This document shows, piece by piece, positions 30,001-39,000 of a DNA stretch of 40,545 nt. Position 1 is the first letter of the stretch, and the number at the start of each line of letters is the position of its first letter. This stretch comes from Nitrospinota bacterium. Lineage in GTDB: Bacteria > UBA8248. A program made the position numbers. Where the stretch lies: assembly GCA_046581755.1 (NCBI GenBank), contig JAYGFR010000323.1, positions 1-40,545 of the forward strand, given 5' to 3'.

Positions 30001-33000
30001 CCAAGGAGTTGACCCGAAAAAGCGTACTCGAGGCGCTTGGCGCCGCATAGATTTCGAATACCTCACTTCATCATCCCCGAAACCGGACATAGAGGAATGA
30101 ACGCATGACCGCTCCGCTCGAAGGACTGAGAGTCCTCGACCTGTCGCGAATTCTCGCGGGCCCTTTCTGTACCATGATGCTCGGCGACATGGGCGCCGAT
30201 GTCATCAAAGTCGAACACCCCCGGGGCGGGGACGACACGCGAAGCTGGCCTCCTTTCTACGAAGGGGGCGAGAGCACCTACTTCCAGTCGGTCAACCGCA
30301 ACAAAAAAAGTTTGACCCTCGATCTGAAGCTGGAGGAAGGGAAAAAAATTCTCCGACGGCTGGTGGAGCGATCCGACATCTTTATCCAGAATTTCCGCCC
30401 TGGCACCATTGAGCGTCTGGGATTCGGCTACGAGGAATGCAGCGCGCTGAATCCCCGCCTGATCTATGCCTCCATCTCGGGCTACGGTCAAAGCGGGCCC
30501 AGCCGGGAGCGGCCCGCCTACGACATCCTCCTCCAGGCGGAAGGCGGCCTGATGAGCATCACCGGGGAGCAGGAAGGTAATTCGTGCAAAACCGGGATCG
30601 CCATCGCCGACCTCACCACCGCCCTGTTCGCCATCCAGGGAATTCTCCTCGCCGTCATCGCCCGCGAGAAGTCCGGGCGCGGGCAGTTCATCGACATGGC
30701 GATCCAGGACGGCCAGGCGGCGCTAATGAGCCACGCGGCGGGGAATTTTTTCGGGACGGGAAAACCTCCGGGAAGGATGGGAAACCGCCATCCGAGCATA
30801 TGTCCCTACAGGGATTTTGCTTGCTCGGACGGCGTCCTCATCGTCGCGGCGGCGAATGATAGCCTTTGGGACCGGTTCGCGCGCACCATCGGCCGGGACG
30901 ATCTGGCGGAAAATCCGAAATGGAAAACCAACGACGGCCGCGTCAAGGGGCGGGACGAGCTGGAGGCGGAAATCGAGAAAATCCTCGCAACGAAAACCCG
31001 CGCCGAGTGGGGGAACATCATCTCCAAGGCGGGGATTCCCTGTGGGCCGGTGAAAGACATCGGCGAGGTGGCCTCCGACCCCCAGATCCTGCACCGCGAT
31101 ATGGTGGTCGAAATCGATCATGCGAAAACGGGCGTCCTGAAAATGATGGGTATTCCGGTCAAGCTCTCCGAAACACCGGGAGAGGTGAAGCTCCCCCCTC
31201 CCATCCTCGGCGAGCACACCGAGGAAATTCTCCGGGATCTGTTGGGTCAACCGCCCGAAGCGGTGGAATCCCTGCGAGAACAAGGCGTGATCTAGCGCCC
31301 AGTTTTCCTGGAGCCCCCGAACATCCTTGCCCTTCCTGTTTAGTGGGCACCTGAATGAGCCTTTGAACAAAAAATTTCACTCGCAAGAATCGCCGTCGGC
31401 ATGAATCCGATTCGGAACCGGCATTCTGGCTTCCGTCCCGGGCCATTACCGGATAGGATGAGGCTGCAATTTTCGAACGGCCCGAGGGACAAGGAAAGGG
31501 TGGAGTCCTGAGAACCATCACCTATTCCCCGAACTTCACGTTGGCGACCACTCTGTGGTGCGTGAACCGATGCGCCTATTGCAGTTTTCGGAGCGACGCG
31601 CCCATCATGATGCCCCTCGAGGAGTGCGAGCGCATCGGGCGGGCGGCCATCGGCGAGGGCGCCATCGAAGCCCTGATCATGACTGGCGAGGGCATCGACC
31701 GCCACCGGGGCCTTCGCGGACAGCTCGCCGAATGGGGATTCGGCTCCTACGCCGCCTACATCGCGGAGATCTGCCGCAGGTATTTGGATATGGGCCTGCT
31801 CCCCCACACCAACATCGGAACCCTGGAGGAATGGGAGCTCGAACTGCTCCAACCCTACAACGTGAGCATGGGCATGATGGTCGAGACGGTCAGCCCCGAG
31901 GCCACCCACATCGCCCACCGCGCGGCGCCGACGAAGGCACCCGAACTCCGCCTGGCCAGCCTCGAGGCCGCCGGGCGCCTTGGCATCGCTTTTACGACGG
32001 GAATCCTGATCGGAATCGGCGAGAAGCCCGCGGAACGGATCGAAGCGCTGGAGGCCATCGCGAATCTCCATGCCCGCTACGGCCATATTCAAGAGGTCAT
32101 CCTCCAGCCCCTGAACCCGCAAGAGGGAACGCCCATGGCCCGGTGGATGAGGCCGGGAGATGAAGAAATCGCCGAACTGATCCCCGAAGTCCGCCGCCTC
32201 ATGCCGGGCGTTCACGTCCAGGTGCCGCCCAACCTGGTGGACGACCTCCCATCCCTCCTCGAAGCGGGGGCGGACGATATCGGAGGCGTCGCCCATGAAC
32301 CCGACTACATCAATCCCGACCGTCCTTGGCCGAAGGTGGCTTCCCTCGGCCCGCAACTGCTCCGAAAAAATATGACCCTTCGCGTCCGGATGCCCATTTA
32401 CGATGAGTTCATCGACGCGGGGTGGTGTCCCCCTGCCGTCTCCGCCGCCCTCGGCAGCCAGTTGGCCCGGCGCGGGGAGATCGAGGCCGAATCCGTGGAG
32501 GTATCATGACCCCCCCGGCAACGATGGAAATTCTCGACGCCTTCGAGGCAGGCGAGGACATTTCGAATTCGCACGCCGAAACCCTGATCGAGGAATCCGC
32601 GCCCGATGCCGTGGAGCGTCTCCACCTCCTCGCCGACGCCGAGCGAAAGGCCAGCGTTGGAGACGAGGTCAGCTATATCGTCAACGCCAACGTCAACTTC
32701 ACGAACGTTTGCTATACCGACTGCAAATACTGCGGTTTTTACCGCAGGCCGAGCGATCCGGATGCCTACACGCACGGCGATGACGTGTTGCGCGAAAAGT
32801 TCGGCCGTGCGCGGGATTTTGGCGTCACCGAAATCTGCATGCAGGGCGGCCTAAACCCCGCCATATCGCTCGACCGCTACGAGGAGGTCTTGCGGCTGGC
32901 GAAAGAGGTGATCCCCGGCGTTCATTTGCACGCCTACTCGCCGGCGGAGATTGACCATATCCAGCGGAAAACCCGGCTTCCCCTCGAAGTCATCCTGAGG

Positions 33001-36000: not shown

Positions 36001-39000
36001 ACTCTCCGATTCCGGACAGGGATGGGGAATTAAGGCCGACACCACCGGCGCCCTCGATCTTCTCGGCCGCTACGGTGGGCCGACCTGGTTCCGTCTCGGG
36101 GATATCGACATGGCCACCCACATTCGCCGGACCCAGCGCCTCTCGGAGGGCGCCCGGCTCACAGAGGTCACGGCGGAGTTGTGCTCCGCCCTGAACATCC
36201 AGGCACGGGTCCTGCCGATGACGGACTCCCCCGTGGCGACCCGGGTCATGACGCCCGTGGGAGAGCTGGAGTTTCAGGATTATTTCGTGGCGCGGGGAAC
36301 TCGGCCGCATGTTACGGGAGTCCGCTTCCAGGGTGCGGACAGCGCCGAGGCGACTCCGGAGGTTTTTAACGCGCTCCGGGAGGCAAAAACCATTGTGTAC
36401 TGTCCGTCGAATCCGATTGTCAGCTTGGGCCCGATTTTGGCGATAAAAGGGATTCGCGAGGGATTGAGGGAAAAACTCCACCGGCCCCGCGTGGGCGTGA
36501 GTCCCATCATCGGCGGCGCCGCTCTGCGGGGACCGGCCGCCGAAATGCTGAAAAGCCTGGGACACGATGTTTCCGCTCTCGGTGCGGCCGAAATCTTGCG
36601 CGAATATCTGGACGCATTTGTCATCGACGAGAAGGATGCGCATCTCTTGGCATCGTTCGAACATTCGGGAATCCGGGCGCGGGCGGCCCAAAGCGTGATG
36701 TCCGACCTGTCTTCCAAGAAGCGTCTGGCGCAAGAGGTGCTGGATTTCGCGGAAAATATCCGGGGCCAGGCATCGGCGGGCTGATGCTATGATGCGGATG
36801 GGTAACACTCACTGAACGAGAGATTTTTTTGATGGCAAATCCACATCCATGCATCGCGCTCATACCGGCCAGGGATTTTCGTTCGGGAAAATCGCGGCTG
36901 GCCGATGTCCTGAGCGATGACGAGCGCGCGGAATTGGGGAAATGGATGTTTGAGCGGGTCCTGCGCGCGGCCGGATCGGCGGTGGGCGTGGACGAAATCG
37001 CGGTCCTGAGCGATGGAGATTCCGTTCTTTCCATAACCGAAAAAAATGGCGCGGTGGGCATCAGGTGCCCGGCGCGGGAGTTGAACGAAGACCTGGAAGC
37101 GGGCCAAAGGTGGGCGCTTGAAAGAAAGGCGCGCACGATTCTGGTCATCCCCGCGGACCTGCCGGCGCTGGAGCCTCCGGACATTGATGCGATGATCGGG
37201 CAGGGCGATGAACGCCGATACCCTGGAGGTTGCGCCGTCATGGTCTCCTCCCCGGACGGCGGGACGAACGGGCTGTTCATCCGGCCGGCCGGCCGGCTTG
37301 CGTTTCATTTCGGCCCGGACAGCTTCGCGCGGCACCGCGATGCGGCGCGATCCAGCCATCTTCCATTCATTTCATTCCAAAATTCGGGGTTCGGCATGGA
37401 TGTGGACACTCCCTCGGACTTGACTGTCCTTTCCGAAAGGGGGATTCCGCTTCCCAAATGGCTGGCTGCGATTTCTCTCCCATGAGTCCGGTCGAACTGA
37501 TTCCTCTTCCAGGCATGCCCGAGGTCCGGCCCGGAGACGATTTGCCGGGGCTGATCGCGTCGGCCGCGGCAATGGCGGACATCATCTTGGCGGATGGGGA
37601 CGTGATCGCCATCGCGCAAAAGATCGTGAGCAAGGCCGAGGGCCGGTATGTCCGCCTCTCGGATGTAGAGCCTTCGGCCGAAGCGGTGGAAATCGCCAAC
37701 CGGGACGGAAGGGATGCCCGGCTTGTCGAGGCCGTCCTGCGCGAATCCAACGAAATCGTCGCCGCCTCGGAGCGGGCCTTGATCGTCGAGCACCGCTCCG
37801 GAGCCGTTTGCGCGCACGGGGGCGTCGATCGCTCCAACCTCGAGGGGGATGAAGACACCGTCTTGCTCCTTCCCGAGGATTCGGACGCTTCGGCGAAAAA
37901 AATCCGCGGGGATTTGAGGCAAAAAACCGGCGCTTTTCCGGCGGTGATCATCGTCGACACGCAGGGCCGAGCCTTCCGCAGCGGCGTCGTCGGCGTGTGC
38001 ATCGGGTGCGCGGGCCTTGAGCCGCTCGTCGATTTGCGGGGCACCCGCGACCGGGCGGGGCGCTTGCTTGAAATTACGCAGGTGGCGCAAGCCGACGAAA
38101 TCGCGGCGGCGGCGAGCATCGTCATGGGACAAGGGGCGGAGGGAAGGCCCGTCGCCGTGATCCGGGGCTATGAATACCATCCCGGAAATAATCCGGCTTC
38201 TCGGTTGTACCGAAAAAAAGAGGACGATCTTTTTCGGCCATAAACCCCGAACGGGGTCAATCAAGCCCTCCCCGGCCCGGCCTGGCCCGGCCTACCCATT
38301 TTATTCACGGACGCTTCTTTCCAATCCATTCACAAAATGGAAAATTTTTCGCAGGGCGATAAAATGCCCGGCCAGGAAGGATTTTCAACCATTTCATGAG
38401 CACCCTCACAAAGGGGAAAAATAAAACCATCAAACCGGACGATATGAAACCGGGCTGATGTTATAGAGACCGCTGAAAAACTATTCCAGGAGGCATTCGG
38501 CAAGAGATATTCCCCCCAAAATCATATCATAATAGAAGCTTTTCTATATAATTTGCTACTATTGGATATTTTATCGGTCCGGAGAAGCTCACTTTGGGAC
38601 TTTTTCACCAGTCTCTTCAATTGAAAACCTCTACTCGAGTGGTTTTCGTCAAAATTAACATTCCCCATGCACAGGTTCGAAAAACTTCCATGCTGATTCT
38701 GCAGGCACGGTTCAACGGTTCTTGAGAACGTGGGGAATCAAACCCCCCGCAGTGATTATCTCCCGCATGAAATCGGGAATGGGCGCGGCCTGAAAAGTCA
38801 GGTTCGAGATGAGGTTTTTAATTTCACCGCTTTCGAGATTCACCCTGAGCTGATCTCCCATGCTCACGGAATTCTTTGGCAAATCGCACTCCAAAAGCGG
38901 AAGACCGCGGTTGAAGGCGTTTCGGTAGAAAATCTGACCGAAGGAGCGGGCCACGATACAACTGACCCCCAAACCTTTCATCGCAATGGGGGCGTGCTCG

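Follow-up and report, generated by a model that had tools for sequence, protein, structure and literature searches.

A ferredoxin-FrhB flavoprotein associated with bacterial F420 synthesis genes: a predicted ferredoxin:F420 oxidoreductase with a broken gene in one Nitrospinota-labelled species

An F420 synthesis operon in a marine Nitrospinota bacterium includes a gene for a ferredoxin-FrhB protein, and the evidence supports its assignment to the FrhB family as an F420-linked FAD/iron-sulfur oxidoreductase. Iron-sulfur flavoproteins of this type are described as an archaeal family. On balance, we favor the prediction from sequence that the protein is a soluble ferredoxin:F420 oxidoreductase, likely supplying F420H2. 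The survey's finding had been that F420 may be linked to ferredoxin or respiration through this protein and a complex I without NuoEFG; the ferredoxin link stands as the best reading, whereas the pairing with the headless complex fails. In the bacterium described here, the gene is probably dead and is therefore unlikely to link F420 to anything.

Organization of the F420 operon

The window, a 40,545-nucleotide stretch (contig JAYGFR010000323.1), contains the order cofG-cofH-[ferredoxin-FrhB]-fbiE-cofD-cofC-cofE, with all seven genes where the survey had placed a ferredoxin-FrhB fusion within an F420 operon. CofG, CofH, CofD, CofC, and CofE exceed their NCBIfam cut-offs in profile searches, and judged by its genes the host is an F420 producer.

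31508..32509, + strand: cofG, FO synthase subunit (radical SAM); TIGR03550, 302 bits (cut-off, 213)
32509..33741, + strand: cofH, FO synthase subunit (radical SAM); TIGR03551, 397 bits (cut-off, 374)
33749..34120, + strand: 5' piece of the ferredoxin-FrhB gene, 2x[4Fe-4S] ferredoxin domain with eight Cys; Fer4 matches
34060..34064, + strand: one-base deletion relative to intact relatives; DNA alignment and contigs of 4/4 runs
34063..35193, + strand: 3' piece of the ferredoxin-FrhB gene, FrhB N- and C-terminal domains; PF04422, PF04432
35190..35819, + strand: FbiE-type stand-alone nitroreductase resembling the FbiB C-terminal domain; TIGR03553, 147 bits (below the cut-off of 249.55)
35816..36784, + strand: cofD; TIGR01819, 313 bits (cut-off, 257)
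36829..37485, + strand: cofC; TIGR03552, 134 bits (cut-off, 105)
37482..38243, + strand: cofE; TIGR01916, 279 bits (cut-off, 181)

The inferred start of cofG is a CTG near 31508; among the common start codons, the first is the TTG at 31541, and the frame stays open upstream of it. The nitroreductase is of the FbiE type (described in PMC8498797) and likely a dehydro-F420 reductase. The 5' piece of the ferredoxin-FrhB gene ends in an out-of-frame tail 3' of the deletion. The 3' piece carries an FAD site, one [4Fe-4S] cluster, and a predicted F420 pocket. No named relative was found for its tail, which is ~100 aa long and rich in proline (best atlas score of 0.83, a level reached by chance). The 36 luciferase-like and 15 PPOX matches reported for the genome were recovered as well, these figures being matches and not gene counts.

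Protein family and conserved residues

In the intact protein, a 2x[4Fe-4S] ferredoxin domain precedes the two FrhB domains, both of which (PF04422 and PF04432) score above cut-off. All 12 cluster cysteines are invariant in 64/64 aligned ortholog rows, comprising the eight of the ferredoxin domain and C201, C249, C308, and C311 for the [4Fe-4S] cluster next to FAD, which align to 3ZFS_C in alignments (also made to 8RIU_B and 8RJA_E) with the intact protein of G009 as the query. The FAD-loop DGGxVT is invariant among orthologs, and D121-G122-G123, K279-G280, and G324-G325 are each kept in 64/64 rows. K279-G280 aligns to the IGKGK turn of FrhB and G325-V326 to FrhB S209-V210, both placed at the F420 site (PMC3591093). 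Small residues are retained at the position of S209-V210; in the turn, one lysine and a glycine are invariant, and the second lysine is E in 38/64 rows and K in 25/64. We know of no motif that proves F420 use.

The closest solved structures are F420-reducing subunits, 8RIU_B (E 2e-47) and 8RJA_E (E 2.5e-45), followed by FrhB and Fsr, with HCAR reaching just E 1.5e-7. Scores against FrhB models fall under both cut-offs (218 bits of 269 and 200 of 331.5). The name FpoF given in the survey did not hold up: the protein scores 108.8 bits against a cut-off of 475 and 108 against 444 with the FpoF equivalog family models, on which the comparison with FpoF/FqoF was based, and none of 102 nearer relatives passes the FpoF cut-offs (best, 214 bits). 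A literature search found no description of this protein.

The broken gene is a property of the species

The ferredoxin and FrhB pieces lie in different frames, as the survey had reported, and DNA alignment with four correctly oriented relatives, three of the eight rows having been set aside for wrong orientation, locates a single absent base near 34060-34064. Also as reported, an intact 482-aa open reading frame is present in G009 and the gene is intact in kin, including all four congeners (G001 to G004). The survey had placed the split in this assembly, but it belongs to the species. Contigs from 4/4 runs (four studies) cross the deletion with 0 gaps, a check made on contigs and with the source sample possibly among the runs, and the deletion is common to independent seawater populations. 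Assembly error is rejected on this basis, and the gene here has probably become a pseudogene recently. Programmed frameshifting was also rejected, a classic slippery heptamer or long homopolymer being absent at the site as judged by eye.

We considered whether the gene could be alive here as two working subunits, a ferredoxin piece and an FrhB piece. The break does fall near the boundary between the domains, the second frame starts with a GTG at 34063, and there is no further stop or frameshift. However, the 3' piece read alone would miss the first FrhB strand, 8/13 variant codons alter the protein (pN/pS of ~0.48 versus dN/dS of 0.04 to 0.23 between species, a pseudogene call that uses 13 variant codons without a matched control gene), and the copy is altered at six sites otherwise invariant in 23 to 24 family rows. 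Two functional subunits are thus very improbable.

Distribution and genomic link to F420

A match was found in 31/41 genomes, and in 48/51 genomes of the phylum the FrhB domain occurs exactly once. The closest outside orthologs, 56 to 73% identical, are labelled Pseudomonadota. The genomic link of the protein to F420 holds: cof genes adjoin its orthologs at 28/80 loci, in at least three gene orders, and cofE is present in 45/50 carriers outside the window's lineage. No constant partner enzyme was found among the neighbors at the 80 loci.

A link of this kind could mean that the protein serves F420 biosynthesis itself, either by reducing dehydro-F420 in its FrhB pocket, as BciB does with its own substrate, or by feeding low-potential electrons to CofG/CofH. 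In keeping with such a role, the gene lies directly 3' of cofH in two distinct operon orders, an FbiE-like match above 34 bits occurs in 0/5 proteobacterial carriers tested, and fbiE is found in just 1/20 cof regions of outside carriers. We nevertheless consider this role doubtful, as FbiE sits in the same operon in the window's lineage, 63/65 non-carriers in the Binatia sample have cofE, no cof gene occurs in the fetched flank at 52/80 loci, and the cof genes are intact in this species though the ferredoxin-FrhB gene is broken. Some Betaproteobacteria, moreover, use a 3PG-F420 route that needs no reduction (PMC8498797).

The headless complex I: probably a separate complex

The second complex I without NuoEFG described in the survey is present. 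Contig C397 carries a full nuoA-N operon and then nuoABCDHJKL, and L, M, and N continue on C211, which overlaps C397 by 213 bases at 94% identity; the separate NuoI was likewise located, as a second nuoI on C351. The single NuoF of the genome is in the full operon, and the second complex matches the 11-subunit type, with nuoABCDHIJKLMN present and nuoEFG outside its operon. It may borrow NuoEFG from the adjoining full operon, and the best explanation is a separate, lineage-wide complex of the 11-subunit type. Co-variation between the tails of NuoI2 and the ferredoxin-FrhB protein was rejected: the NuoI2 tail is present in G025, whose protein is without the long tail, and short NuoI2 occurs in both carriers and non-carriers of family f4.

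Under the proposed pairing, the protein would be an FpoF-like input module docked on the headless complex, and together they would form a bacterial Fpo/Fqo that couples the transfer of F420H2 electrons to quinone with proton pumping or, run backwards, reduces F420 with electrons of quinol. Its domain order is identical to that of FpoF, most genomes of the window's lineage and many Binatia carry both protein and complex, and fpoF-type partner genes can sit away from the operon, which also counts for docking. The pairing is not supported, however, because many genomes carry the protein alone and many others the complex alone. There are no nuo genes in the fetched flank at any of 80 loci, and none of 19 proteobacterial carriers has a second, headless-type NuoD (one NuoD in 15, none in 3, and one plus a weak 144-bit match in 1); the one complex I operon read among them, in G053, includes nuoEFG. 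Conversely, the headless complex is present in G026 (99% complete), which has neither cofE nor FrhB, and in G027 and G028, which have no FrhB, it is the sole complex I detected. In the Binatia sample, the headless complex occurs in 69/86 carriers versus 55/65 non-carriers, with any FrhB domain in 0/64 tested non-carriers, and the species described here retains the complex although its gene is broken. Together with the wide margin by which the FpoF models are missed, these observations make an FpoF-like docked module unlikely, and a bacterial Fpo is not supported.

Complexes of the 11-subunit type have been proposed as docking platforms for several donors (PMC3144371), so part-time docking may occur. 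A protein that docks part-time in relatives with intact genes and acts as a solo ferredoxin:F420 oxidoreductase where the complex is absent has, in our estimate, a slim chance of being correct. If true, the Fpo/Fqo of archaea would have its first counterpart in bacteria, either as a proton pump linking F420H2 to quinone or as a proton-driven path by which quinol reduces F420.

Proposed function and relation to Fno

As a ferredoxin:F420 oxidoreductase, and by reference to FrhB, Fsr, and the Ethanoperedens subunits, the protein would take up single electrons at the distal cluster and pass them across three clusters to FAD, from which a hydride would go to F420. The donor would be reduced ferredoxin from 2-oxoacid:ferredoxin oxidoreductases, matches to which were found in 5/5 carriers tested; RnfC was above cut-off in 0/5. 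This direction would be downhill, from about -420 to -500 mV to about -350 mV, and the reaction should be reversible. F420H2 would then supply the many luciferase-like and PPOX-type enzymes, with the protein keeping the pool charged as a stand-alone flavoprotein travelling with F420 synthesis genes. Soluble FpoF shows Fd:F420 oxidoreductase activity (PMC9012536). Counting against our reading, the FrhB fold also serves non-F420 enzymes, such as BciB, which draws on ferredoxin (PMC4836224).

The survey had called the protein an F420H2 oxidase, but F420 reduction fits the pattern of genes better. Fno occurs in 19/77 carriers and in 0/19 proteobacterial carriers, and neither Fno nor an Fgd-family enzyme was detected in 54/77, although many genomes had only some of their candidates scored in the Fno/Fgd searches and absences mean "not found" since most genomes are incomplete. 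The present genome (G000), with its broken gene, has Fno; congeners G001 to G004, with intact genes, do not. G027 and G028, which have cofE but no FrhB domain, have Fno. In the Binatia sample, Fno is present in 38/86 carriers versus 41/65 non-carriers, with a p of 0.03 that ignores kinship. The trade-off is loose, given that the 19/77 and 38/86 carriers have both proteins, and cofE occurs without this protein and without detected Fno in 22 genomes of the Binatia sample. Fno likely takes over the job in this species; its gene sits at a contig end, on C27, which has atypical composition (rank 13 of 132), and mis-binning is therefore possible. Other luciferase-like dehydrogenases could also reduce F420.

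Such dehydrogenases bear on whether the soluble enzyme runs mainly in reverse, delivering electrons of F420H2 to acceptors such as ferredoxin or rubredoxin-type carriers. FrhB-family modules run both ways (Fsr and FpoF), Fno, which the protein partly replaces, is also reversible, F420-reducing dehydrogenases could be among the products of the dozens of luciferase-like genes, and rubrerythrin adjoins the gene at 7/80 loci. Electron transfer from F420H2 to low-potential ferredoxin would, however, be uphill without bifurcation, no bifurcating partner is found among the neighbors, and no acceptor gene is constant. We judge a mainly reverse direction improbable.

The bacterial clade of this protein is single copy and covers the Nitrospinota-labelled lineage, Binatia, and Pseudomonadota with F420 genes, often without Fno and Fgd. 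If it is a ferredoxin:F420 oxidoreductase, it would constitute a third bacterial route for charging F420, tie F420 chemistry to 2-oxoacid oxidation, and offer a candidate single-gene F420 regeneration system. The genome described here is a natural experiment in which the gene is broken and Fno is present.

Comparison with known systems

The closest counterparts are the ACDS zeta and FwdI-type F420 reductase subunits of "Candidatus Ethanoperedens thermophilum" (8RIU_B and 8RJA_E; PMC11493965), which share the N-terminal 2x[4Fe-4S] ferredoxin fused to FrhB with FAD and one cluster. In those anaerobic archaea, the two are permanently built into CO dehydrogenase and formylmethanofuran dehydrogenase, whereas the protein here belongs to a bacterial F420 synthesis operon, has no constant partner gene, and carries its own insert and tail. 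FpoF/FqoF of Methanosarcinales and Archaeoglobales have the same domain order, and the ferredoxin:F420 activity of FpoF is the activity proposed here; unlike them, the protein has no genomic tie to complex I and scores far under both FpoF cut-offs. It aligns with FrhB at the FAD loop, the four cluster cysteines, and the surroundings of the F420 pocket, but it is without the hydrogenase or sulfite reductase partner or domain of the FrhB and Fsr systems. The 482-aa protein matches just residues 5 to 327 of Fsr (group I/II), the fused siroheme sulfite/nitrite reductase half being absent. BciB (8-vinyl reductase) and HCAR are likewise FrhB-fold FAD/Fe-S proteins of non-archaeal hosts that use ferredoxin, although the hosts here are tied to cof genes and not chlorophyll genes, and the HCAR match is weak. 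Finally, the headless complex resembles the 11-subunit complex I-like enzyme (PMC3144371) in having nuoABCDH(I)JKLMN without NuoEFG and no designated partner found, but differs in that most of the class carries nuoI apart from the operon, at another locus, and that the headless operon follows the full nuo operon in tandem.

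A ferredoxin-FrhB gene within the cof operon

The cof operon of the window comprises seven plus-strand genes (about 31508-38243) that overlap by 1 to 4 bases at four junctions. In profile searches of the window, CofG, CofH, CofD, CofC, and CofE passed their NCBIfam cutoffs; the nitroreductase matched the FbiB C-terminal model below its cutoff and is consistent with FbiE, the stand-alone form reported in PMC8498797. The survey's finding of a ferredoxin-FrhB fusion inside this operon, frameshifted here and intact in kin, held up: both frames are present in the window, the ortholog in genome G009 is one open reading frame of 482 amino acids, and the gene is intact in all four congeners (G001 to G004).

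33749-34120, plus strand: ferredoxin piece of the split gene, between cofH and fbiE, overlapping the FrhB piece
34063-35193, plus strand: FrhB piece of the split gene, between cofH and fbiE, overlapping the ferredoxin piece
16110-18097 and 10599-11264: two genes of luciferase-like type and one of PPOX type, whose products may use F420
7734-8297, minus strand: HicB-like antitoxin gene

A CoA-transferase III gene precedes the operon. Database records label near relatives of the window as Nitrospinota, Nitrospinaceae, or Tectomicrobia; we take UBA8248 to be the GTDB name of the lineage.

The break is real and probably inactivating

Aligned with the DNA of four relatives in the correct orientation (three reversed rows were ignored), the window is one base short near 34060-34064. 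Contigs from four seawater or vent metagenome runs, belonging to four studies, cross this site gap-free, at approximate depths of 51, 7, 15, and 10. One of these runs could be the source sample, and contigs conceal rare alleles; three positions set the contigs of all four runs apart from the window. The break is therefore not an assembly error: the split noted by the survey stands, but its restriction to this assembly does not, as contigs of all four runs span the site.

Variants within the broken gene change the protein in 8 of 13 codons, a proportion improbable under a dN/dS of 0.1 (P = 0.006) and consistent with neutrality (P = 0.19), with no well-covered control gene. The pN/pS of about 0.48 compares with dN/dS values of 0.04 to 0.23 in nine between-species pairs, a comparison tempered by polymorphism normally being higher than divergence. 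The window has altered residues at six positions where 23 to 24 family rows otherwise show no variation; five of them fall within the FrhB piece, a count that ties for first among the rows, although the adjoining CoA-transferase gene likewise has six altered sites. We regard the window gene as probably a young pseudogene inactivated by the break; that it still works as two split parts in this species is very improbable. G022 (L183) and G176 (L185) also appear to carry split copies, broken at other positions.

An FrhB-family protein rather than FpoF

The intact protein has eight ferredoxin and four FrhB cysteines, and these, together with a DGGxVT loop, K279-G280, and G324-G325, are kept in 64/64 aligned orthologs. 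Its nearest solved structures are 8RIU_B and 8RJA_E, F420-reducing subunits of "Ca. Ethanoperedens" (PMC11493965), followed by FrhB and Fsr (PMC10229431), with HCAR distant. K279-G280 aligns to the IGKGK turn of FrhB, whose second lysine is often replaced by glutamate in the orthologs, and G325-V326 to S209-V210, both at the FrhB F420 site (PMC3591093). The FpoF models gave 109 and 108 bits against cutoffs of 475 and 444, the FrhB cutoffs were also missed, and none of the 102 next relatives scanned (of 150) exceeded an FpoF cutoff. Because of these structural matches and missed models, the protein is, as judged from its sequence, an FrhB-family member and not FpoF, so the label "FpoF-like" given by the survey is dropped. 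The database label, "coenzyme F420 hydrogenase subunit beta," is assigned by domain.

A proline-rich tail of about 100 amino acids (window 34890-35193) is conserved in the window family and in proteobacterial orthologs and absent from Binatia forms. As the two groups have this tail in common despite different gene orders, transfer between them is suggested.

Association with F420 genes

Exactly one FrhB domain occurs in 48/51 genomes of the phylum. Among the best 80 of 181 loci found in GTDB genomes, cof genes lay in the fetched flank at 28: 21 in window order, 2 in Burkholderiales as cofEDC-GH-frhB, 4 in Binatia or deltaproteobacteria, and 1 in Pseudomonadales facing the cof genes. No catalytic partner gene was constant among the neighbors. 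Outside the lineage, 50 of 59 loci were tested for cofE (the other nine are on short contigs), and 45 of these carriers have it, 44 above cutoff. A role in F420 biosynthesis is quite improbable. Our Binatia sample (151 genomes from G069's class, the unpublished G180 among them, called Binatia by member labels) cannot test the cof tie, since 146 have cofE.

Loci L190 to L198, labeled marine Gammaproteobacteria, hold a cofE-D-C-G-H operon that is conserved among them; most have CoA-transferase III genes close by, and fbiE is absent from the cof region. The term Gammaproteobacteria is absent from the main text of PMC8498797.

No genomic pairing with the headless complex I

The second complex I without NuoEFG reported by the survey is present in the window genome: immediately after a full nuoA-N come nuoABCDHJKL on C397 and, in continuation, LMN on C211. 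A second nuoI lies on C351, and there is only one NuoF. Its proposed pairing with the protein failed. At none of the 80 loci was a nuo gene seen within the fetched flanks (at most 7 kb, often less), and the protein's gene and the headless operon lie 0.2 to >1 Mb apart in genomes that are closed or nearly so. Of the 19 Pseudomonadota-labeled carriers, which include orthologs of up to 73% identity, 15 have a single NuoD, 3 have none, and 1 has a weak match besides its one NuoD; the sole complex I operon read there contains nuoEFG. Conversely, in G026 (99% complete) the headless operon occurs with no cofE and no FrhB found, and in G027 and G028 (95%) the headless form is the only complex I detected, with cof genes present and FrhB absent. 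In the Binatia sample, headless-type NuoD, assigned by similarity, occurs in 69/86 carriers versus 55/65 noncarriers (P = 0.53); all 10 operons of this type that were read directly in carriers are without EFG, and 0/64 noncarriers tested have any FrhB domain.

The protein and the headless complex do not track each other, and a bacterial Fpo is without support. Eleven-subunit complexes that lack a fixed partner occur widely and have been known for a long time (PMC3144371; PMC4453560). An Fpo-like role, with the protein serving the headless complex, is unlikely, although part-time docking may occur.

Across most of the class, the headless nuoI (C351:3408-3959 in the window genome; loci L129 to L158) stands apart from its operon. 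In families f1 and f2 it encodes an additional tail of about 30 conserved residues, missing in f4; this tail is a candidate docking surface for a donor. G027 (C6, L107) and G028 (C1, L108) are 2.1-Mb genomes, 95% complete, with one NuoD each. Loci L123 (G084) and L124 (G069) hold a further Binatia operon, nuoA-C-D-E-H-J-K-L-M-N, with nuoE and without B, F, G, or I.

Ferredoxin as the probable source of reduced F420

According to PMC8498797, Fno is the only known F420-reducing enzyme encoded by betaproteobacterial and Tectomicrobia F420 producers; this led us to search carriers for Fno and for Fgd-family enzymes. Fno was found in 19/77 carriers (7/29 within the phylum, 0/19 proteobacterial), with some candidates unscored, and neither enzyme was seen in 54/77, with many Fgd and some Fno candidates unscored. 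Fno is present in G027 and G028, both without the protein, and in the window genome, where the gene is broken; it was not found in the four congeners. Against a clean trade-off, Fno occurs in 38/86 carriers versus 41/65 noncarriers of the Binatia sample, and 22 of its genomes with cofE have neither the protein nor detected Fno.

The window genome's Fno is 63 to 71% identical to others of the family. As fno neighborhoods differ from genome to genome and this copy lies at the end of a contig of atypical composition (C27) beside a recombinase-like gene, both transfer and misbinning are possible. The same contig carries, beside that recombinase-like gene, a sat-aprBA-qmoABC-like cluster (C27:5269-13597; translations read by eye), which could represent a sulfur-metabolism island gained by this genome or belong to a misbinned contig.

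Matches to 2-oxoacid:ferredoxin oxidoreductase occurred in all five carriers tested, and RnfC exceeded its cutoff in none of them. With ferredoxin at -420 to -500 mV (PMC3578206) and F420 at about -350 mV (PMC10229431), electron flow to F420 is downhill, and soluble FpoF catalyzes the ferredoxin:F420 reaction (PMC9012536). We lean toward a soluble ferredoxin:F420 oxidoreductase that would mainly charge F420; a soluble enzyme running instead as an F420H2 oxidation is rather unlikely. Of the survey's link of F420 to "ferredoxin or respiration," the first half is our preferred reading, and the respiratory, Fpo-type half lacks support.

Comparison with known systems

In the literature searched, mostly at title and abstract level, with few subscription journals and no supplements, we found no description of a ferredoxin-FrhB gene situated within bacterial F420 operons; the enzyme class is described as archaeal in PMC8518648 and PMC8498797. 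The new results are the failure of the complex I pairing when tested, the pattern of Fno occurrence, and the finding that the break is shared across the population. In relatives whose gene is intact, a bacterial enzyme that charges F420 is plausible and would be easy to test.
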